DNA of 9,821 nucleotides from a virus (taxonomy: Duplodnaviria > Heunggongvirae > Uroviricota > Caudoviricetes). The position numbers were made by a program, and so were the translations under genes. Under the pieces are notes generated by a model that did not search any database, was not told where the DNA came from, and saw only the letters and a program-made list of their open reading frames with translations. The DNA is taken from the IMG/VR virus record IMGVR_UViG_2703718828_000005; one strand, 5' to 3'. Positions 1-9,821 of the stretch are shown here, piece after piece. The first letter of the stretch is position 1. The number at the start of each line of letters is the position of its first letter.

Positions 1-1053
1 TTACGGGGTAATGCCAACCGCTGCCGCCACTTTGTCGCCACTTGGCAGCGTTGCCAGAGGATTGAAACGGAGCGCCGTTTCCAGATGATCTGGTGCCAGA
101 TGTGCGTAACGCATAGTCATTTTTATATCGTGGTGTCCGAGAATTTTTTGTAAGGCCAGAATGTTTCCACCCGACATCATGAAGTGCGCCGCAAACGTAT
201 GGCGCAGAACGTGTGTGAGTTGACCGCGAGGGAGCACGATAGACGTTTTTTCCATCACGGATAAAAATTGAAAATAGCAGTCTGTGAAGAAATTGAACCC
301 ATCAAGCGCCATGATCTCTTCGTAAAGCTCTTTACTGATAGGGATACTTCTGTTTTTCTTCCCCTTCGTTCTTACAAAGGTAATTCGGTATTTGGTCACC
401 TGTGAACGAGTAAGATTTACGGCTTCTCGCCAGCGTGCGCCTGTGCTTAAGCATATCTTAACTACCAGTGCTAGAATTGGGTCCTGACGTTTGCAATCAG
501 CCAGTAATTCAACAATCTGCTCATGGGTAAGCCATGCCATCTCTTTTTCTGCGATGGTGAATTTTCGCATGTTCTCCAGTGGGTTCGGATACGACCATTC
601 GCCCAGACGGGATAGTTCGCTAAAAACACTACTTAGATAGCTTTGCTCCAGGTTAATGGTGACCGGGCTTGCTCCTTTCTTCCATTTCTCGCTGAAGTAG
701 ATCTCGCCTGTCAGGCGTTTATCTCGATAGTGGGCAAACATTTTAGAGGTGAGATCGGTTGCAAGAGGATTGCCCAGAGCGTCAACCATCAGCAGCAATT
801 TGTCATAGACATGCTGCCCAGCAGTCAGAGATTTACCATGTAGTTTGAACCATAGCTCAACCACGTCTTTCAGGGTTCGACGATCCACTGATTCGCCCAG
901 CCATGGCTTTGATTCGGTTTCTTCCATAGTGTGACGCTCAAAAGCCAGAGCTTCGCCTTTGGTGGCGAATTGTTTACGCACACGACGCCCACTTCGTCCG
1001 GCGGGGTAACATTCGCAAAGCCATTTCCCTGTGGTGAGTTTTCGTACTGCCAT
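1..1053 (-). CDS. int: Phage integrase, tyrosine recombinase family (P2/186-like)
   Basis: 350-aa product. C-terminal catalytic region reads LRHTFAAHF...GHHDIKMTMRYAHL (R, H-x-x-R, Y signature). Start chosen at ATG 1051-1053 (MAVRKLTTGKW...), preceded by GGAGGG 8 nt upstream. The ORF-track start at 1209 would run through the promoter and RBS. Confidence 0.9.
   Translation of the reverse strand: MAVRKLTTGKWLCECYPAGRSGRRVRKQFATKGEALAFERHTMEETESKPWLGESVDRRTLKDVVELWFKLHGKSLTAGQHVYDKLLLMVDALGNPLATDLTSKMFAHYRDKRLTGEIYFSEKWKKGASPVTINLEQSYLSSVFSELSRLGEWSYPNPLENMRKFTIAEKEMAWLTHEQIVELLADCKRQDPILALVVKICLSTGARWREAVNLTRSQVTKYRITFVRTKGKKNRSIPISKELYEEIMALDGFNFFTDCYFQFLSVMEKTSIVLPRGQLTHVLRHTFAAHFMMSGGNILALQKILGHHDIKMTMRYAHLAPDHLETALRFNPLATLPSGDKVAAAVGITP
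19..40. repeat. attL: Putative attL core (cGCTGCCGCCACTTTGTCGCCA)
   Basis: Matches 6967-6988 at 21 of 22 positions (single C/T difference). Lies at the 3' end of int, where attL is expected for a P2-like prophage. Confidence 0.7.
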
Positions 1054-1077
1054 AAAAAATGCCCTCCAGTAGAGAGC

Positions 1078-1106
1078 ATTTTTACTGTATGTATAACCAG
1101 TGTCAA
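1078..1106 (-). promoter_or_regulatory. Candidate sigma-70 promoter for int (-35 TTGACA at 1106-1101, -10 TAAAAA or AAAAAT around 1084-1078)
   Basis: Minus strand reads TTGACA-ctggttatacatacag-TAAAAAT, then GGAGGG and the int ATG about 25 nt downstream. Perfect -35, 4/6 -10, 16-17 nt spacer. Confidence 0.5.
1083..1102. promoter_or_regulatory. Candidate LexA (SOS) box TACTGTATGTATAACCAGTG
   Basis: 16 of 20 matches to the consensus TACTGTATATATATACAGTA. CTGT-N8-CCAG half-sites as in the uvrB operator. Occupies the spacer of the int promoter and overlaps its -35. Confidence 0.5.
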
Positions 1107-1241
1107 TGTATGAAATCCTACGACCATACATCTCACTGAAGCCATAATGAAGTTGGCTATTCTTTTTGCTATGTGAGCATGTAACTTTTGCGGTTAACCT
1201 GCGGCTCATTTTTATTTTAGACGCAGATATAAAAGCAAAAG

Positions 1242-1433
1242 TTATCGTGAGTTTTTAGTACAGATTTTTTTGGATTTACTAATAGTTCCATCATTGCAAA
1301 CGAATTTGCCATCTGAGGTACAGTGAGAAACACCTCCCTTTTTCCCTGAGCAGGGATAATTTCTAGCATAGGTAGTTAGTGGGTTTAATAACAAAGAACA
1401 TGACAAAACCACAAAAAATACCTTACCAAGCAT
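1242..1433 (-). CDS. Small secreted cysteine-containing basic peptide (hypothetical; candidate moron)
   Basis: 63 aa. N-terminal signal peptide [23 protein letters not shown] with predicted cleavage after TYA. Mature ~40 aa carries 4 Cys and is Lys-rich. Strong RBS GGGAGG 5 nt upstream of the ATG. Region is markedly AT-rich. Sits 15 bp downstream of cI on the same strand. Confidence 0.6.
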
Positions 1434-1448
1434 AGTTTCCTCCCGGTA

Positions 1449-2018
1449 CTATTTAACATACTTGACTGTTAAACTTATAATTTTACCAATTATTTCAATG
1501 TCTTCTATCTTACATTCGAAGGCTCTGTTTCCACCCTCGACGAAGATTCTTCCACCGGGTAAACGAGTAATGTCACGGATCGTTACTTCGCCATCAATAC
1601 TTATTACCCATTTACCATCACGTATATCATCAAATTCTTTATCACAAATAAATTCAGAATTGTTATCTGTGATGACAAAAGGTTTTTTAAACGTAGAGGG
1701 TAAAAATCCCTTATCAAAAATATAAAAACCGTCTTCACGCAAGGCACCATCAGATAATACATATTTAGCAACTTCCATAGTATTTGTATTACCTGAAGTT
1801 TGCTTTGAACCATGTCCGGTTGTGAGCCAATTAAGCGAGGTGCCCGTTTCAAGGGCGCACTGGATTACCCATTCTGCTGGGAATGAGTCACGCATGTAGC
1901 GTGTGGCGAGTGTACTTTTAGAGATTCCTAAATGATCGCACAACGCCTGTCGAGTTTTGAATCCATAAGCTTCTACCATGCGCTCTATAGCGCCTCGTCC
2001 GCCTTTCTCCAAATTCAT
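1449..2018 (-). CDS. cI: Phage 186-type CI immunity repressor
   Basis: 189 aa from ATG 2016-2018 (GGAG 5 nt upstream; the ORF-track GTG at 2024 overlaps the SD). N-terminal HTH region (GISKSTLATRYMRDSFPAEWVIQCALETGTSLNWLTTG). Length is close to 186 CI. No S24 peptidase signature seen in the C-terminal domain. Divergent from apl and cII. Confidence 0.8.
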   Translation of the reverse strand: MNLEKGGRGAIERMVEAYGFKTRQALCDHLGISKSTLATRYMRDSFPAEWVIQCALETGTSLNWLTTGHGSKQTSGNTNTMEVAKYVLSDGALREDGFYIFDKGFLPSTFKKPFVITDNNSEFICDKEFDDIRDGKWVISIDGEVTIRDITRLPGGRIFVEGGNRAFECKIEDIEIIGKIISLTVKYVK

Positions 2019-2042
2019 GGTCACTCCAAGTGAACTTTTATC

Positions 2043-2071
2043 TTGACGATTTCATTGTGCGATCGTATGTT
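2043..2071 (+). promoter_or_regulatory. Candidate early lytic promoter (pR-like): -35 TTGACG 2043-2048, 17-nt spacer, -10 TATGTT 2066-2071
   Basis: Read directly from the cI-apl intergenic region 2019-2143. Flanked by a GTGAAC (2030-2035) / GTTCAC (2078-2083) inverted pair that could be operator half-sites. Confidence 0.4.
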
Positions 2072-2143
2072 TATGGTGTTCACAAAATACAAACGATCCG
2101 TATTCGTCCTGATTAATCATCATTAAACGAGGAATGTTGCATC

Positions 2144-2365
2144 ATGAGACCTAACATTTCAATCACTCTTACCACGCCTCATGTGACTATTGAGCGCTAT
2201 AGCGAGCTGACAGGGCTGTCCATCGATACCATCAATGACATGTTGGCTGACGGACGCCTTATCCGTCACCGTTTGCGCAAAGATAAAAAACGCGAAAAAG
2301 TGATGATCAACATAGCAGCCATGACCGTTGATGCGCTTTCAGAATGCAATCTAAACCTTAATTAG
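2144..2365 (+). CDS. apl: Apl/Cox-family excisionase and transcriptional regulator
   Basis: 73 aa, basic. First gene of the rightward operon, divergent from cI, as for P2 cox and 186 apl. RBS GAGGAA 9 nt upstream. Confidence 0.75.
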
Positions 2366-2397
2366 TTCGATTCTGAAATACATCAGAGGCATTGACC

Positions 2398-2907
2398 ATG
2401 TTTGATTACCAAGTTTCCAAACATCCACATTTTGATGAAGCCTGTCGTGCATTTGCACTGCGCCACAATCTGGTGCAACTGGCAGAACGTGCAGGCATGA
2501 ATGTGCAGATTCTGCGGAACAAGCTGAACCCAGCTCAGCCTCATCTATTAACCGCACCAGAAATCTGGCTGCTTACCGATCTGACTGAAGATTCAACGCT
2601 GGTAGATGGTTTTCTGGCACAGATTCATTGTCTGCCATGTGTACCGATTAATGAGGTGGCAAAAGAGAAACTGCCACATTACGTCATGAGTGCAACCGCA
2701 GAGATCGGGCGTGTTGCTGCAGGTGCGGTATCTGGCGATGTAAAAACCAGTGCAGGTCGTCGTGATGCTATCAGCAGCATTAACTCTGTAACACGACTGA
2801 TGGCGTTGGCTGCTGTTTCATTGCAGGCCCGTTTACAGGCTAACCCTGCGATGGCGAGTGCAGTTGATACCGTGACCGGACTCGGTGCTTCATTCGGTTT
2901 GCTGTGA
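2398..2907 (+). CDS. cII: Phage 186-type CII transcriptional activator (lysogeny establishment)
   Basis: 169 aa from ATG 2398 (AGAGG 8 nt upstream), the same length as 186 CII. Immediately follows apl as in phage 186. Confidence 0.8.
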
Positions 2908-2914
2908 GGTGCTT

Positions 2915-3211
2915 ATGCTGACGAAAGAACCATCATTTGCATCGCTGCTGGTAAAGCAAAGCCCGGCAATGCACTACGGTCACGGCTGGATCATGGGTGA
3001 GGATGGAAAACGCTGGCATCCATGTCATTCACAAGATGAATTGCTGTCTGAATTGACCACGAGGAAACGGAGAAAGTCAAAATGTATGCAGCGGAAAGTG
3101 AAGTGGTTTATCAGTTTTGTTACAGAGGGGAGAGTTATTCAGTACCTGAAGATGATTTGCTCTGTTGTTATCCGTCGTTGTCGGGCGATGGCAGTTACTT
3201 TTTCACGCTAA
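2915..3211 (+). CDS. Hypothetical early protein (3' extent uncertain)
   Basis: ATG 2915 with GAGG 5 nt upstream, 8 nt after the cII stop. The 98-aa frame overlaps the next ORF by 130 nt. The N-terminal ~55 aa look protein-like; the C-terminal part may be a non-coding overlap. Confidence 0.4.
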   Translation: MLTKEPSFASLLVKQSPAMHYGHGWIMGEDGKRWHPCHSQDELLSELTTRKRRKSKCMQRKVKWFISFVTEGRVIQYLKMICSVVIRRCRAMAVTFSR

Positions 3212-3306
3212 AGGATGGGACGTTTTTACGGGGAGAGCAGGTTAAAGAGATGGTACGAAAAAATGTATCTCCCCTTGAGCGTTACCGTAAGAACAAAGAA
3301 CGATAG
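3082..3306 (+). CDS. Hypothetical early protein
   Basis: 74 aa (MYAAESEVVYQFCYRGESYSVPEDD...), balanced acidic composition. GGAG upstream. First ATG after in-frame stops in the -1 frame relative to the 2915 ORF. Confidence 0.5.
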   Translation: MYAAESEVVYQFCYRGESYSVPEDDLLCCYPSLSGDGSYFFTLKDGTFLRGEQVKEMVRKNVSPLERYRKNKER

Positions 3307-3328
3307 GTGCGTTTGGGGGATATGAAGT

Positions 3329-3670
3329 ATGGCAATTAATGGCGCTGCGGCGACTGTTCCATTAAGCCCCGGAGAACGCCTGAATGGACTTAATCACATT
3401 GCGGAATTAAGGGCGAAAGTATTTGGCCTGAATATTGAGTCAGAGCTTGAGCGGTTTATTAAAGATATGCGTGATCCACGGGATATCAATAACGAACAAA
3501 ATAAACGGGCACTGGCTGCCATATTCTTTATGGCAAAAATTCCAGCTGAACGTCATAGCATCAGCATTAATGAGCTGACCACTGACGAAAAGCGGGAGTT
3601 GATTAAAGCAATGAATCATTTTCGTGCAGTGGTGAGCTTATTTCCCAGACGGCTAACCATGCCGAATTAA
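3329..3670 (+). CDS. Hypothetical early protein
   Basis: 113 aa. GGGGGA 8 nt upstream of the ATG. Sits in the position of the small conserved early genes of P2/186-like phages. Confidence 0.6.
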   Translation: MAINGAAATVPLSPGERLNGLNHIAELRAKVFGLNIESELERFIKDMRDPRDINNEQNKRALAAIFFMAKIPAERHSISINELTTDEKRELIKAMNHFRAVVSLFPRRLTMPN

Positions 3671-3737
3671 CCAACCAATGAAATTAATGGCGTAAACCCG
3701 CCGGGCATCCCTTTATCTAAATTCAGGAGAATTGATT

Positions 3738-3971
3738 ATGCGTAATATTGAAACCCTCACGACCAAAACCGGACCGGATGATGCAGGTCTTAATCTTTTA
3801 CTGACAGAGGCTCGTCTGGAAGAACGCCGGGCAAGGGCTGAAGCAATGGCTGCTCGCCTCGATAGCCTGGCGTGTCATATCACCTCCCGCCAGCTAAACC
3901 ACGTCGAAGCGGCAGAACTGCTGCGTGTGACTGCTGAAGCAATCCAGAACGAAGCGCAGGAGATCCACTGA
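3738..3971 (+). CDS. Hypothetical early protein, predicted helical/coiled-coil
   Basis: 77 aa from ATG 3738 (AGGAGA 7 nt upstream). Stop TGA overlaps the next gene's ATG by 1 nt. Confidence 0.6.
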   Translation: MRNIETLTTKTGPDDAGLNLLLTEARLEERRARAEAMAARLDSLACHITSRQLNHVEAAELLRVTAEAIQNEAQEIH

Positions 3972-4198
3972 TGGCTGATGCAATGGATCTCGTACAGCAG
4001 CGCGTTGAAGAAGAACGCCAACGCCATATCCGTGCTGCCCGTGCCAAAACGCCGGGCGTGTCCCGCGTGCTTTGCGTTGAGTGTGAAGCGCCAATTCCGC
4101 CAGCACGCCGCCGTGCCATTCCTGGAGTGCAGCTTTGCATTACCTGCCAGGAAATCGCAGAGCTGAAAGGCAAACATTACAACGGAGGTGCTGTATGA
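3971..4198 (+). CDS. TraR/DksA-family C4 zinc-finger protein
   Basis: 75 aa with CxxC-x17-CxxC (CVEC...CITC). Same position as the TraR-like gene upstream of A in P2-like phages. Confidence 0.8.
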   Translation: MADAMDLVQQRVEEERQRHIRAARAKTPGVSRVLCVECEAPIPPARRRAIPGVQLCITCQEIAELKGKHYNGGAV

Positions 4199-5052
4199 GC
4201 ACCATCCTGAAATGGGCGGGTAATAAAACCGCCATTATGTCCGAACTGAAAAAATACCTTCCTGCTGGCCCGCGACTGGTTGAACCTTTCGCGGGTTCTT
4301 GTGCTGTGATGATGGCGACGGATTACCCCAGCTATCTGGTTGCGGATATTAATCCTGATTTAATCAACCTCTATAAAAAGATTGCCGCTGATTGCGAAGC
4401 GTTTATATCTCGTGCCAAAGTTTTATTTGAGGAAGCAAACAGTGAGCTGGCTTATTACAACATAAGACAGGAGTTTAATTACTCAACTGAAATTACTGAT
4501 TTCATGAAGGCGATATATTTCCTGTATCTCAATCGTCACGGTTACCGTGGTTTATGTCGCTATAACAAGAGCGGGTATTTCAACATTCCCTACGGTAATT
4601 ATAAAAATCCGTATTTCCCTGAAAAAGAAATTCGCGCATTTGCAGAGAAAGCCCAGCGGGCAACGTTTATCTGCGCGAGCTTTGATGAAACGCTGGCGAT
4701 GCTGCAGGTGGGGGATGTGGTGTATTGCGATCCGCCGTATGACGGTACGTTTTCCGGCTATCACACTGATGGTTTCACTGAAGATGACCAGTATCACCTG
4801 GCATCCATTCTTGAACATCGGTCATCAGAAGGACATCCGGTCATTGTTTCTAACAATGACACATCCCTGATTCGTTCGCTGTATCGCAATTTTACTCACC
4901 ACTATATCAAGGCAAAACGCAGCATCGGCGTGTCAGCTGGCGAGGGTAAATCTGCAACAGAAATCATTGCTGTTTCCGGGCCGAGCTGCTGGTTGGGATT
5001 TGATCCTTCGCGTGGCGTGGATAGTTCTGCCGTGTACGGAGTGTGTGTATGA
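4195..5052 (+). CDS. dam: DNA adenine methyltransferase, Dam family (GATC-type N6-adenine MTase)
   Basis: 285 aa from ATG 4195 (GGAGGTG upstream). LKWAGNK N-terminal motif, [15 protein letters not shown] and the catalytic DPPY motif. Clearly similar along its length to E. coli Dam. Start overlaps the upstream stop (ATGA). Confidence 0.9.
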
Positions 5053-6368
5053 GTCATGACGATATGAACAATTGCAGCGGCTTTAACGAGGCCGCCGCAG
5101 CATTTTCATGGAACGGCTCGAAAAAGGCCATTAACCCTTATCTGGACCCGGCGGAAGTTGCGCCGGAGTCTGCACTTTCAAACCTGATCACTCTGTACGC
5201 TGCCGATAACGAGCAGGAACAACTGCGCCGCGAGGCACTGAGTGAGCAGGTCTGGGAGCGTTATTTCTTTAATGAATCCCGTGATCCTGTCCAGCGCGAA
5301 ATGGAGCAGGATAAGCTCATTAGCCGGGCAAAGCTGGCGCATGAGCAGCAGCGTTTTAATCCGGACATGGTCATTCTGGCGGACGTAAACGCCCAGCCTT
5401 CCCATATCAGCAAGCCGCTGATGCAACGTATTGAATACTTCAGCAGCCTGGGCAGGCCAAAGGCTTATTCCCGCTATTTGCGTGAGACGATTAAGCCATG
5501 TCTGGAGCGACTGGATTGTGTACGTGACAGTCAGCTATCTGTTTCTTTCCGTTTTATGGCAAGCCATCAAGGGCTGGAGGGTCTGCTGATCCTGCCTGAA
5601 ATGAGCCAGGATCAGGTGAAACGCCTGTCCACCCTGGTAGCAGCGCATATGAGCATGTGTCTTGAGGACGCTTGTGGTGATTTGTATGCCACCGATGACG
5701 TTAAGCCAGAAGAAATCCGCAAGACATGGGAAAAGGTGGCAGCGGAAACCCTGCGTCTGGATGTAATCCCGCCTGCGTTTGAGAAACTTCGTCGGAAAAG
5801 AAACCGCCGCAAACCAGTGCCCTATGAACTCATCCCGGGTTCGCTGGCGCGTATGTTGTGTGCCGACTGGTGGTATCGGAAATTATGGAAGATGCGTTGC
5901 GAATGGCGGGAAGAGCAGTTGCGTGCTGTCTGCCTGGTCAGCAAAAAAGCATCCCCCTATGTCAGCTATGAAGCCGTGATGCATAAACGTGAGCAGCGCC
6001 GTAAGTCGCTGGAGTTTTTTCGTTCTCATGAACTGGTGAACGAAGACGGCGACACGCTGGATATGGAAGATGTGGTAAACGCCAGCAGCAGCAACCCGGC
6101 GCATCGCCGCAATGAGATGATGGCCTGTGTTAAAGGTCTGGAGCTTATCGCGGAAATGCGCAGTGACTGTGCCGTTTTCTACACTATCACCTGTCCGTCG
6201 CGTTTCCATTCCACGCTCAATAACGGCAGACCAAACCCGACCTGGACAAACGCGACGGTAAGACAAAGTAGCGATTATCTGGTCGGCATGTTTGCTGCAT
6301 TTCGTAAGGCTATGCATAAAGCCGAGTTGCGCTGGTATGGCGTGCGGGTACCTGGTGGGGACGGATGA
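5049..6368 (+). pseudogene. A: Replication initiation endonuclease (P2 gpA family), truncated at about codon 435
   Basis: N-terminal region includes ITCPSRFH and ends ...ELRWYGVRV, then runs into an unrelated PGGDG-stop tail. The HUH histidines and catalytic tyrosines that normally follow are absent. Start ATG 5049 overlaps the dam stop. Confidence 0.8.
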
Positions 6369-6657
6369 AAACGTGCTGGTACTTAATCGCACTTATGCCA
6401 ACCGGAGCAACGCCGAACGAGCGGCAAAAATGCAGTGGGAACGCCTGCAACGCGGTGTTGCGTCATTCTCGCTACAACTGGCGGAAGGGCGGGCAGATCT
6501 TTACACGGAAATGCCTGTAAAAGTCAGTGGTTTTAAACAGCCGATAGATGATGCGGAATGGACCATTACCACCCTGACGCATACTGTCAGCCCGGATAAC
6601 GGTTTTACGACCAGTCTGGAGCTTGAAGTGAGGATTGATGATTTCGAAATGGAATGA
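6351..6657 (+). pseudogene. D: C-terminal fragment of tail gene D (P2 gpD family)
   Basis: Frame +1 relative to A encodes ...LVLNRTYANRSNAERAAKMQWERLQRG...SGFKQPIDDAEWTITTLTHTVSPDNGFTTSLELEVRIDDFEME, recognised as a gpD C-terminus. No own RBS or 5' portion. Lies directly upstream of ogr as in P2. Confidence 0.7.
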
Positions 6658-6747
6658 TTCTTCGCAATGGAGAACTTTTAAGTTTGCAAAATGGAATAAT
6701 GCGGTATCATTGTTGTGAATTTAGCAAAAATGGGGAGAACTCGAAAA

Positions 6748-6988: not shown

Positions 6989-7043
6989 TCGTTAAAAAAC
7001 AGTGCTTCTAACATCATGATTTTAAACAGCATAAATTTCAGGC

Positions 7044-7089
7044 AACAAAAAACCCATCAACCTTGAACCGAAATGGCGGGGTTGATGGG
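7044..7089 (-). terminator. Candidate intrinsic terminator downstream of ybjL
   Basis: Perfect 10-bp inverted repeat CCCATCAACC (7053-7062) / GGTTGATGGG (7080-7089) followed on the minus strand by TTTTTTGTT (7052-7044). The loop is long (17 nt, ~11 with G-U pairs). Confidence 0.35.
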
Positions 7090-7201
7090 CTCCACAAAAT
7101 GGGGACATCAAAGAAAAGCAGTGGCACTAATTAAGACTGATGCCCTGCGGAAAAGTTCTGCGGTTGTGCAAAAAAATTTCATTTTCAGGGCAACTTCAGT
7201 T

Positions 7202-8887
7202 TTATCCTAATCCTGGCCATACCATGACGATGATTGTCCCTGCCAGCGTCAGCAGGACGTTGGCGATTGCATAGGTGCCCGCATAGCCCAGCGCCGGGAT
7301 GTTACTGCGAGCTGTATCACTGATGATCTCCATTGCCGGCGCGCAGGTACGTGCGCCCATCATTGCGCCGAACAACAGCGCGCGGTTCATTCGCAATACA
7401 TAAGCACCGAACAAGAAACAGATAACCACGGGCACCAGACTGACAATCAATCCGGCAATCAACATCTGACCGCCAATCGCGCCCAGGCCGTTATTAATAC
7501 CGCTACCGGCGCTCAGACCAACGCCTGCCATAAACACCATCAAGCCGAACTCTTTCACCATGCTTAATGCACCCTGCGGAATGTAACCGAAGGTCGGGTG
7601 GTTAGCACGCATAAAGCCCAGCATAATTCCGGCGAATAACAACCCGGCAGCGTTCCCCATGCCGAAACTGAATGTGCTGAACTGGAAGGTGATCATCCCG
7701 ATCATCAGCCCAATAACAAAGAAGGCGCAGAATGCCAGCAGGTCAGTGACCTGGCTGTGAATCGAGATAAAGCCGATGCGATCGGCGATGGTTTTTACGC
7801 GGCGGGCATCGCCGCTGACTTGTAAAACGTCACCTTTGTTAAGCACGACGTTGTCATCTATCGGCATCTCAATCTGGCTACGAATGACGCGGTTAAGGAA
7901 GCAACCGTGATCGGTCAACTTCAGTTGTGCGAGACGTTTACCTACAGCGTTATGGTTTTTAACGACCACTTCTTCAGTGACGATACGCATGTCGAGAAGG
8001 TCACGATCGAAAACTTCTTTACCGTTACGGAAGCTGGGATCGAGTCGGGCATGGGCGTCGGGATAGCCTACCAACGCTATTTCATCGCCCATTTGTAGCA
8101 CGGCATCACCGTCTGGATTTGCCAGAATCCCGTTACGTCGAATACGTTCAATGTAGCAGCCGGTTTGTCGATAAATACCCAGTTCACGCAGATTTTTGCC
8201 GTCGGTCCAGGCCACCAGTTCCGGGCCGACGCGATAGGCGCGGATCACCGGTAAATAAACCTTACGGTTGGCATCAGTGTCCAGGCCACGTTCGCGGGCG
8301 ATTTGCTGGGCGCTGGTCTGTAAGTCCTGATGCTGCAATTTCGGCAAGTAACGCGCACCAACAATCAAACTCACCAGACCGATTAAATAGGTTAAGGCAT
8401 ACCCGAGGCTCAGATTATCCAGTGCCAGTGAGAGCTGCCTGCTTTCCATGCCGGAATGACGCAGTGTATCGCCAGCACCGACCAGAACCGGTGTCGACGT
8501 CATAGAGCCTGCTAACATACCGGCCGTCAGGCCAATATCCCAGCCAAACAGCTTACCTAACCCTAAGGCGATCACCAGCGCACTGCCAACCATCACCAGT
8601 GCTAACATTAGGTAATTTTTCCCATCGCGAAAAAAAATGGAAAAAAAGTTCGGTCCGGCTTCGACCCCGACGCAGAAAATAAACAGCATAAAGCCAAGAT
8701 TAAGCGCATCGGTGTTAATGCTGAAATGTTGTTGGCCTAATAACAGCGATACGACTAAAACGCCAATGGAATTACCCAGTTGGATCGAACCAAGTCGTAA
8801 CTTTCCGAGACATAGCCCAAGCGCGAGGACCACAAATAATAACAGAATGTAATTCCCATTTAACAATTCGGCGACGTTTATATTCAC
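7202..8887 (-). CDS. ybjL: YbjL-type putative transporter (AAE/YidE-YbjL family, two transmembrane domains flanking a cytoplasmic regulatory region)
   Basis: 561 aa. N-terminus [25 protein letters not shown]... recognised as E. coli YbjL. Conserved synteny with ybjM and grxA. Start appears to be GTG with a weak SD. Confidence 0.85.
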
Positions 8888-9156
8888 GGAGGCTAACTTC
8901 TTGTTTACTAGTAAGCTGTTGAAAGAAATGGTAATTTACGATAATGTTTTTTACCAGAATTCAGGGCGCAGATTCATTCAGCGCACCTAAACGATAGTAA
9001 AGTAACAATATATTTTACTAGTGTAATCACATTAGGTATCAACGGCTATATGAATTGCGTTGGCCTATATTAGCATGGAATGCGAAGCGGCTTTATCTTA
9101 CTGAACGCCACACTGGCGAAAAATGTGTTCGATAGACGCAGTGTCAGGAGGAACGA

Positions 9157-9534
9157 GTGAAACATAAACAACGTTGGGCGGGGGCAATCTGCTGTTTTGT
9201 CCTCTTCATTGTGGTGTGCCTTTTTCTGGCGACGCACATGAAAGGCGCTTTTCGGGCTGCCGGGCATCCTGAAATCGGCTTGCTATTTTTCATTCTTCCT
9301 GGAGCAGTCGCCAGCTTCTTTTCACAGCGTAGAGAAGTCCTGAAACCTCTGTTTGGCGCAATGCTGGCGGCACCCTGTTCGATGCTCATTATGCGGCTGT
9401 TTTTTTCACCGACGCGCTCATTCTGGCAAGAGCTGGCATGGTTACTAAGCGCGGTGTTCTGGTGTGCGCTGGGGGCACTGTGTTTCTTATTTATCAGTAG
9501 TTTGTTTAAACCACAGCACAGAAAAAATCAGTAA
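9157..9534 (+). CDS. ybjM: Inner membrane protein YbjM
   Basis: 125 aa, multiple hydrophobic segments. GTG start with AGGAGG 5 nt upstream. Position between ybjL and grxA as in E. coli. Confidence 0.8.
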   Translation: MKHKQRWAGAICCFVLFIVVCLFLATHMKGAFRAAGHPEIGLLFFILPGAVASFFSQRREVLKPLFGAMLAAPCSMLIMRLFFSPTRSFWQELAWLLSAVFWCALGALCFLFISSLFKPQHRKNQ

Positions 9535-9554
9535 AGCCCTCAACGCGAGGGCTT
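9534..9554 (-). terminator. Intrinsic terminator between convergent ybjM and grxA
   Basis: 8-bp stem AAGCCCTC / GAGGGCTT with 5-nt loop. On the minus strand it is followed by a U-tract (ACTGATTTTTT), placing it just downstream of the grxA stop. Confidence 0.55.
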
Positions 9555-9563
9555 GTCAGACGA

Positions 9564-9821
9564 TCAGGCGTCCAGATTTTCTTTCACCCATGCAGCAAAA
9601 TCGGTATAGCCGCCGATATGTTGCTGATCGACAAAAATCTGCGGCACGGTTTCTACGGGTTTACCTGCCTTTTGTTGTAGATCTTCTTTAGTGATCCCTT
9701 CCGCACGAATATCTACATACTGATACTGAAAATCATCGCGTTCATTGCTCAATTTCTCAGCCAGATCTTTTGCACGCACACAGTAAGGGCAACCCGAACG
9801 ACCAAAAATAACGGTTTGCAT
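9564..9821 (-). CDS. grxA: Glutaredoxin 1
   Basis: 85 aa with the CPYC active site. Sequence recognised as E. coli GrxA along its whole length. Start codon is at the window edge. Confidence 0.95.
   Translation of the reverse strand: MQTVIFGRSGCPYCVRAKDLAEKLSNERDDFQYQYVDIRAEGITKEDLQQKAGKPVETVPQIFVDQQHIGGYTDFAAWVKENLDA

Follow-up and report, generated by a model that had tools for sequence, protein, structure and literature searches.

The stretch of DNA analysed here, called the window (9,821 nucleotides), very probably contains a 7.1-kb defective remnant of a 186/P2-like (Peduoviridae) prophage of about 33.8 kb, located at the 3' end of the small RNA gene rybB of E. coli. The remnant results in all likelihood from a large internal deletion by homology-independent joining, which left two pseudogene fragments: A', from the replication endonuclease gene A, and 'D, from the tail/baseplate-hub gene D. 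The element is a remnant, not a functional phage.

The Pfam scan and the ORF listing of the window reveal the early half of a 186/P2-like temperate phage. The gene order is that of P2 and 186 (int, a divergent repressor and the early operon up to A, then D, ogr and att), as seen from the Pfam matches and from the collinearity of both arms with intact phages and prophages (Table 1). The element has the features of a cryptic remnant: att repeats, a known integration site, truncated A and D, and the loss of essential modules.

Table 1. Features of the prophage remnant and of its insertion site, in window coordinates.
Feature	Position	Strand	Basis or remark
Retained left arm of the prophage	1..5052		Pfam matches; gene calls on identical contigs L006/L007
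int	1-1053	minus	
ydcA-like gene, 63 aa	1242-1433	minus	YdcA family, NCBIfam NF007463, 115.8 bits
cI, 186-type CI repressor	1449-2018	minus	Phage_CI_repr and Phage_CI_C
apl/cox-like	2144-2365	plus	
cII	2398-2907	plus	Phage_CP76
orf74, 74-aa ORF	3082-3306	plus	
DUF5347	3329-3670	plus	
DUF2732	3738-3971	plus	
TraR/DksA zinc finger	3971-4198	plus	
dam, Dam methylase	4195-5052	plus	
A', first 434 of 804 codons (5' 54%) of gene A, a replication endonuclease gene of the P2/186 type	5049..6350	plus	Pfam PF05840; DNA and protein alignments
Deletion junction, 2-bp TA common to both parents	6349..6350		Base-level alignments to A and D parents
Novel out-of-frame tail of A', PGGDG and TGA (stop 6366-6368)	6351..6368	plus	D DNA in the wrong frame; translation and alignment
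'D, last 102 codons and stop (codons 265-366) of tail/baseplate-hub gene D	6349..6657	plus	BLASTP, DNA identity, Pfam
ogr, intact, 186 B-type late-gene activator, 72 aa	6748..6966	plus	Ogr/Delta zinc finger, Pfam PF04606, E=6.7e-22
attR core AACAAAAAACCCAT, right end of the remnant, overlaps the rybB 3' end	7044..7057		14-bp direct repeat
rybB sRNA gene, full length	7044-7122	minus	Rfam RF00110, 105 bits, 79/79

The junction between gene A and gene D

An earlier note on this DNA, made from the letters alone, had read the A frame as running to ...RWYGVRV and then changing to PGGDG and a stop, with the HUH motif and the catalytic-tyrosine region missing. The alignments bear out both statements. 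The Pfam profile PF05840 (Phage_GPA, E=7e-87) is covered at positions 1-243 of 321 only, and BLASTP aligns A' with residues 27-396 of P2 A (761 aa), the match ending at YGLRV/VEPHHDG. The DNA of A' is 99.5-99.9% identical to that of full-length A genes of 2,415 bp, up to position 6350/6354. In a three-way alignment of the window, P2 A and the A gene of the E. coli B prophage, the window copy stops just before AEPHHDGTVHWH. The break falls ten codons before the HUH motif: the HUH-type sequence HWH, at residues 444-446 of the parent, is absent from A', whose native part ends at residue 434, and the paired catalytic tyrosines (YxxKY, which is YIAKY 498-502 in the parent) belong to the deleted part of the gene. 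The A' product has 439 aa, that is 434 native residues followed by PGGDG, if the ATG at 5049 is taken as the start (the ORF listing gives an alternative GTG start at 5043). No frame gives a full-length A or D through 6349-6350, as there are stops in all frames. In the genome of E. coli AH21, the automatic annotation by PGAP describes A' as a pseudogene ("replication endonuclease, missing C-terminus").

The other side of the join is D-related, as proposed in the earlier note, according to which the +1 frame encodes a gpD C-terminus ending at 6657. Indeed, 'D matches residues 282-382 of P2 gpD (387 residues) with 58% identity (BLASTP, E=3e-40), and it is 100% DNA-identical to the 3' end of the full-length, 1,101-bp D gene of E. 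coli prophages, including that of strain 806883-11-2019. The match to the Pfam profile PF05954 (Phage_GPD) covers positions 237-302 of 305 and scores 26.5 bits, below the gathering score of 30.1. A full-length gpD (about 366-387 aa, the whole Phage_GPD profile) is not present: the retained part, 309 bp long, comprises 102 codons only and lacks its own start codon at the join. The reading frame that had been assigned to gpD, an ORF of 121 codons at 6292-6657, is derived from D from 6349 onwards only; its first 19 codons are A DNA read in the +1 frame from a fortuitous TTG at 6292. In AH21, PGAP annotates 'D as a pseudogene ("late control D, missing N-terminus") adjacent to the A' pseudogene.

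The crossover can be placed to within two bases. Identity with the A parent extends through 6350 and identity with the D parent begins at 6349; the G at 6348 is specific to A and the C at 6351 is specific to D, so that the crossover lies within the TA at 6349-6350. The closest A parents are the prophages of E. coli B and GCM74-1-1; the sequences around the join are GCGTGCGGGTAGCTGAGCC for A, GGGCGATTACCTGGTGGG for D and GCGTGCGGGTACCTGGTGGG for the window. The junction had been expected to be mappable to about 15 bp, and aligning the A and gpD sides with their parents (GCM74-1-1, E. coli B and 806883-11-2019) locates it more sharply. When the window is compared by megablast with 50,697 phage records, A homology ends at position 6349 in every intact relative, and D-ogr homology begins at 6349. 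Similar limits are seen in about 90 phage records and over 1,200 genomes of E. coli: homology on the A side stops at 6349-6354, and on the D side it starts at 6349. The matches of a 201-bp probe laid across the join also break at that base in the 5,426 complete genomes of E. coli, with the exception of one genome, which spans it.

Relative to A, D is read in the +1 frame, and the A' frame stops six codons past the join. The join being out of frame, there is no A-D fusion protein, and the possibility of an in-frame fusion was rejected on the basis of this frame shift and of the A' stop. The fusion of A to the 3' end of D described in the earlier note thus holds for the DNA but not for a protein.

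Looking for microhomology at the junction, as the same note had advised, gives a modest result. Two bases are exactly common to both parents, and five of the six bases of an imperfect microhomology, TA(G/C)CTG (6349-6354), are shared. When 200,000 breakpoint pairs are drawn at random inside an intact sister prophage, an exact microhomology of at least 2 bp occurs by chance with P=0.16. A match of at least 7 in-register positions out of 12 has P=0.016 in a 200,000-pair simulation, but the interval was chosen post hoc and the value is therefore not compelling. Significant microhomology at the junction was rejected on these grounds, and neither an IS element nor a repeat is found at the join.

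In the scenario that is by far the most probable, one illegitimate (homology-independent) recombination joined codon 434 of A to codon 265 of D at the common TA. This event, or the last of several, excised about 26.4 kb and produced the two pseudogene fragments. Slippage or end-joining at minimal microhomology may have been the mechanism, although a microhomology as unremarkable as this one would not allow the mechanism to be fixed from the sequence.

Retained and lost parts of the prophage

The order and the lengths of the left-arm genes are those of the intact sister prophages, except that orf74 stands in place of fil. The segment around orf74 (window 3047-3328, about 280 bp) is without homology to the sister prophages, which have fil there, and the 74-aa product has no match in NCBIfam; the segment looks like a mosaic replacement inside the early operon. 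The region from int to cII (window 47-3046) is about 95.5% identical to the prophages of E. coli B and GCM74-1-1, and the replication region (window 3329-6354) is 99.4-99.5% identical to the same prophages. Going by these identities, there is a mosaic boundary between the two regions, within the retained left arm. The GC content is 0.34-0.37 at window 1050-1800, a patch extending over the spacer between int and cI and the 3' portion of cI, versus about 0.50 elsewhere. The YdcA-family gene located in this patch looks like a moron.

On the right side, the D-ogr intergenic region is kept upstream of ogr. It includes a weak sigma-70-like site (6683-6710), which is a consensus match only. In AH21, where the DNA is 100% identical, Ogr has the accession WP_000972391.1, which is common to the intact sister prophages.

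For this prophage family, the 14-bp att core is formed by the 3' end of the rybB terminator; a second copy of the core precedes the window start by 74-87 bp (contig L006, 4865-4878). In E. coli genomes in which the site is empty, homology to the window stops precisely at the att core, and the core copies are 33.8 kb apart in an intact prophage (L013). The integration site of these 186/P2-like phages is therefore the 3' end of rybB, in the interval from rcdA to ybjL, and a phage arm is present there in about 1,123 of the 5,426 complete genomes of E. coli. The chromosomal genes to the right of the prophage are ybjL, ybjM and grxA, according to the annotation of the 100%-identical DNA of AH21.

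The extent of the lost DNA is given by comparison with related prophages. The prophage of E. coli GCM74-1-1 is apparently intact (no pseudogenes), occupies the same site and has 33.8 kb between its two att core copies; relative to it, the gap is 26,443 bp, with 99.5% identity on the A side and 99.05% on the D-to-flank side. The gap is 26,367 bp relative to strain 806883-11-2019 and about 27.7 kb relative to Klebsiella phage ST11-OXA245phi3.1. The missing stretch runs from codon 434 (of 804) of A to codon 265 (of 366) of D. It contains the catalytic half of A, the ori region (by homology to P2), cos, and all the head, lysis and tail genes. The genes int, cI, apl, cII, dam and ogr and both att cores are kept, in agreement with the statement in the earlier note that the immunity region, the early operon and ogr were left.

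The nick site of P2 ori is annotated at nucleotide 1,859 of A (codon 620 of 761), which aligns to the deleted region about 185 codons (about 550 bp) past the break, so the cognate ori would be gone from the element. Concerning cos, a BLAST search with the cos region of phage Cartapus, which included positive controls, places this region inside the deleted interval in three sister prophages, and the region is not found in the window. The cos 19-mer of P2 is not conserved even in the intact sister prophage, so that a DNA search with it carries no information on the window. A complete structural, lysis and packaging module with cos is not present, about 26.4 kb being absent.

Since the nuclease and ori are gone, the element cannot replicate. 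The loss of all the late genes means that it can neither build virions nor lyse the cell, and without cos it cannot be packaged. The remnant may still confer immunity and may still be excisable, as judged from the genes that it keeps. It still encodes a late-gene activator, Ogr, whose activity is a prediction.

A P4-like satellite, or a PICI using Ogr/Delta, was also considered for the element and rejected: there is no cos and there are no hijacking genes (psu, sid, alpha primase-helicase). Among the ORFs of the remnant, ogr is the only one with a satellite-type domain, and the remaining genes are collinear with 186-like early genes.

Origin and spread of the junction

The earlier note proposed that a single deletion had removed everything from mid-A to late D. 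The interval is indeed absent by comparison with the intact sisters, but that it was lost at once is unprovable, since earlier nested deletions would be traceless. It is conceivable, if rather unlikely, that the remnant does not derive from one deletion in one prophage, and that the join is the last of several deletions or an illegitimate crossover between two P2-like prophages, for example in a double lysogen with both prophages in tandem at one att site; in the case of a crossover, each arm would come from a different phage. The A side is nearest to GCM74-1-1 and E. coli B (99.7-99.9%) and the D side to 806883-11-2019 (100%), whose A is only 94.9% identical. Thus the best relatives of the two sides, GCM74-1-1 (99.9%) and 806883-11-2019 (100%), are different strains, and no single sequenced prophage is at least 99.9% identical to both arms. 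It follows that the true parent is unsampled, and that the size of the deletion and the "single event" are model-dependent. Stepwise loss is also illustrated by the E. coli B sister prophage, which has accumulated several smaller deletions (from scaffold to lysozyme and from invertase to D). However, P2-like phages are pervasively mosaic, and discordant nearest relatives are expected even with a single parent; phage mosaicism explains the discordance of the arms equally well as stepwise loss or a crossover between two prophages. Moreover, a single scar is visible from int to attR, the GCM74-1-1 prophage by itself accounts for both arms with at least 99% identity, and the present junction is a single join either way.

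The junction left by the large internal deletion occurs, identical, in the closed complete genome of E. coli AH21 (100% identity over 6.5 kb), which makes it present in one of the 5,426 complete E. coli genomes. The exact 439-aa product of A' is encoded on 28 contigs from four sources (NCBI, JGI/IMG, Logan and ENA). A 41-mer across the junction is found in AH21, in ENA metagenome assemblies and in the Logan assembly of an unrelated run. In the four contigs for which gene maps are available, A', 'D, ogr and ybjL are in the same order and the 41-mer is present (4/4); two of them, which reach far enough to the left, also show rcdA and int. A scan for the exact junction in GTDB species representatives and JGI metagenome contigs returned zero matches. 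Identity between the carriers over the length of the remnant is 99.99-100%, which fits a recent event. The earlier note had asked whether the junction is shared across strains or strain-specific; it proves to be restricted to a lineage, with one occurrence among the complete genomes and 28 contigs in wider public assemblies. It is genuine but rare, a mark of one lineage and not a remnant that was fixed long ago.

In AH21 (contig L003, 4891-6086), an IS5-family element, ISKpn26, and a partial EAL-domain gene fragment replace window 1367-3335, which contains cI, apl, cII and orf74. The window therefore comes from a close relative of AH21 and not from AH21 itself. The replacement came after the deletion, as a second step of decay in this lineage. 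In another carrier contig (L008, ENA ERZ27272449), the remnant is identical to that of the window up to the prophage end, and the ybjL-ybjM-grxA flank (window 7349-9797) has 31 SNPs, several of which are common alleles of other strains. This contig either has the remnant in a second chromosomal background, as a result of recombination, or is a chimeric metagenome contig.

It is improbable that the remnant, or A', is a domesticated module selected for cI immunity, for the activity of Dam or Ogr, or for a dominant-negative effect of A' on P2-like phages. The retained genes are all full length, with the same lengths as in the intact sister prophages, but the near-identity of the carriers means that there has been no time for decay, so that this intactness is uninformative. 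Remnants consisting of a D fragment and ogr do recur independently, with 219 bp of D in PR-X of K-12, 402 bp in E. coli B and 309 bp here. On the other hand, AH21 is already without cI, apl and cII because of the ISKpn26-associated replacement, the junction is rare (1/5,426 complete genomes), and cI should repress the early operon, including A'. Equally doubtful is the idea that the remnant persists stably in the rybB terminator as a "mini-186" cassette for regulation and immunity, made up of int, cI, apl, cII, dam, ogr and the att cores. If it were true, the host could be protected from homo-immune P2/186-like phages, Ogr or the truncated A' could interfere with superinfecting relatives or cross-activate them, and the recurrent survival of D' and ogr in K-12, E. 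coli B and this lineage would reflect selection rather than chance. Domestication is at present without positive support and has little chance of being the right explanation.

There is even less reason to think that the A protein itself, an HUH rolling-circle nuclease, nicked ori and rejoined the DNA aberrantly at a pseudo-ori in D, a scenario which is highly improbable. It would fit with the P2-type ori being inside gene A, and with the left endpoint being inside A too, but the P2 nick site aligns within the deleted DNA, well downstream of the break, which is why the left breakpoint is not attributed to nicking at ori. A 32-nt P2 ori probe, with up to 9 mismatches allowed, gives no match in the window or at the junction, a search for which there was no positive control since it gives none in the intact sister either. 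Finally, a chimeric contig as the source of the A-D join can practically be dismissed: nothing specific points to it, beyond the fact that some of the carrier contigs are metagenomic and that in L008 the remnant is identical but the flank divergent, and it is contradicted by the presence of the 41-mer in the closed AH21 genome, in ENA and in an unrelated Logan run, and of the 439-aa product on 28 contigs from four sources.

Significance and known relatives

The large internal deletion described here is routine prophage decay, already recognised by automatic annotation (PGAP). The progressive deletional decay of defective prophages is commonplace according to general reviews (PMC6379469). The finding has little importance beyond annotation. 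The scar marks a dead prophage, and prediction tools should therefore not count the element as inducible. Pseudogene is the appropriate annotation for A' and 'D, in place of the 439-aa "hypothetical protein" given in some sources. The exact junction 31-mer, GGTATGGCGTGCGGGTACCTGGTGGGGACGG, is a convenient clonal marker of one E. coli lineage. The junction also gives the precise endpoints of a large prophage deletion that arose with essentially no microhomology, and the element is a further instance of a P2-family remnant which keeps ogr and a fragment of D beside an sRNA gene.

The nearest counterparts are the cryptic prophage PR-X of K-12, which is the classical one, and the defective prophage of E. 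coli B. The PR-X element (ogrK and yegZ), a P2 remnant next to cyaR, resembles the remnant of the window in having an intact ogr, a C-terminal fragment of D and the right att end, which abuts the 3' end of an sRNA gene in both cases (cyaR in PR-X, rybB here). However, PR-X is only 629 bp long and has lost the whole left arm, whereas int, cI, apl, cII, dam and half of A are kept here. It also lies at another chromosomal site and has another breakpoint in D (yegZ has 219 bp, compared to 309 bp here).

The defective P2-like prophage of E. coli B (B-StaR/BL21 lineage) is at the same rcdA-ybjL site, and its flank is identical to window 7028-9821, with 0 mismatches. Its early region is 99.4% identical to that of the window, and its Dam, TraR and Ogr proteins are the same as those of AH21. 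Like the remnant of the window, it is defective by internal deletions, one of which likewise ends inside D. Unlike the remnant, it keeps a full-length A (2,415 bp) and most of the late genes, and its junctions are independent (scaffold to lysozyme, and invertase to D with 402 bp of D kept). These two independent internal deletions, from the GPO scaffold to the lysozyme and from the invertase to D, are at 20172-20342 and 28214-28854 of the B-StaR contig (L004). The same prophage has a retron St85-family RT and effector in the moron position after A (L004, 14450-16498).

Intact Peduoviridae (the GCM74-1-1 prophage, Escherichia phage Cartapus, Klebsiella phage ST11-OXA245phi3.1 and 186/P2) share with the remnant the order int-cI-apl-cII-...-dam-A ... 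D-ogr-att, and their DNA is 94-99.9% identical to the retained arms. They differ from it by some 26-28 kb which they carry and which is absent here: the C-terminal half of A with the HUH motif, the tyrosines and ori, followed by cos and the head, lysis and tail genes.
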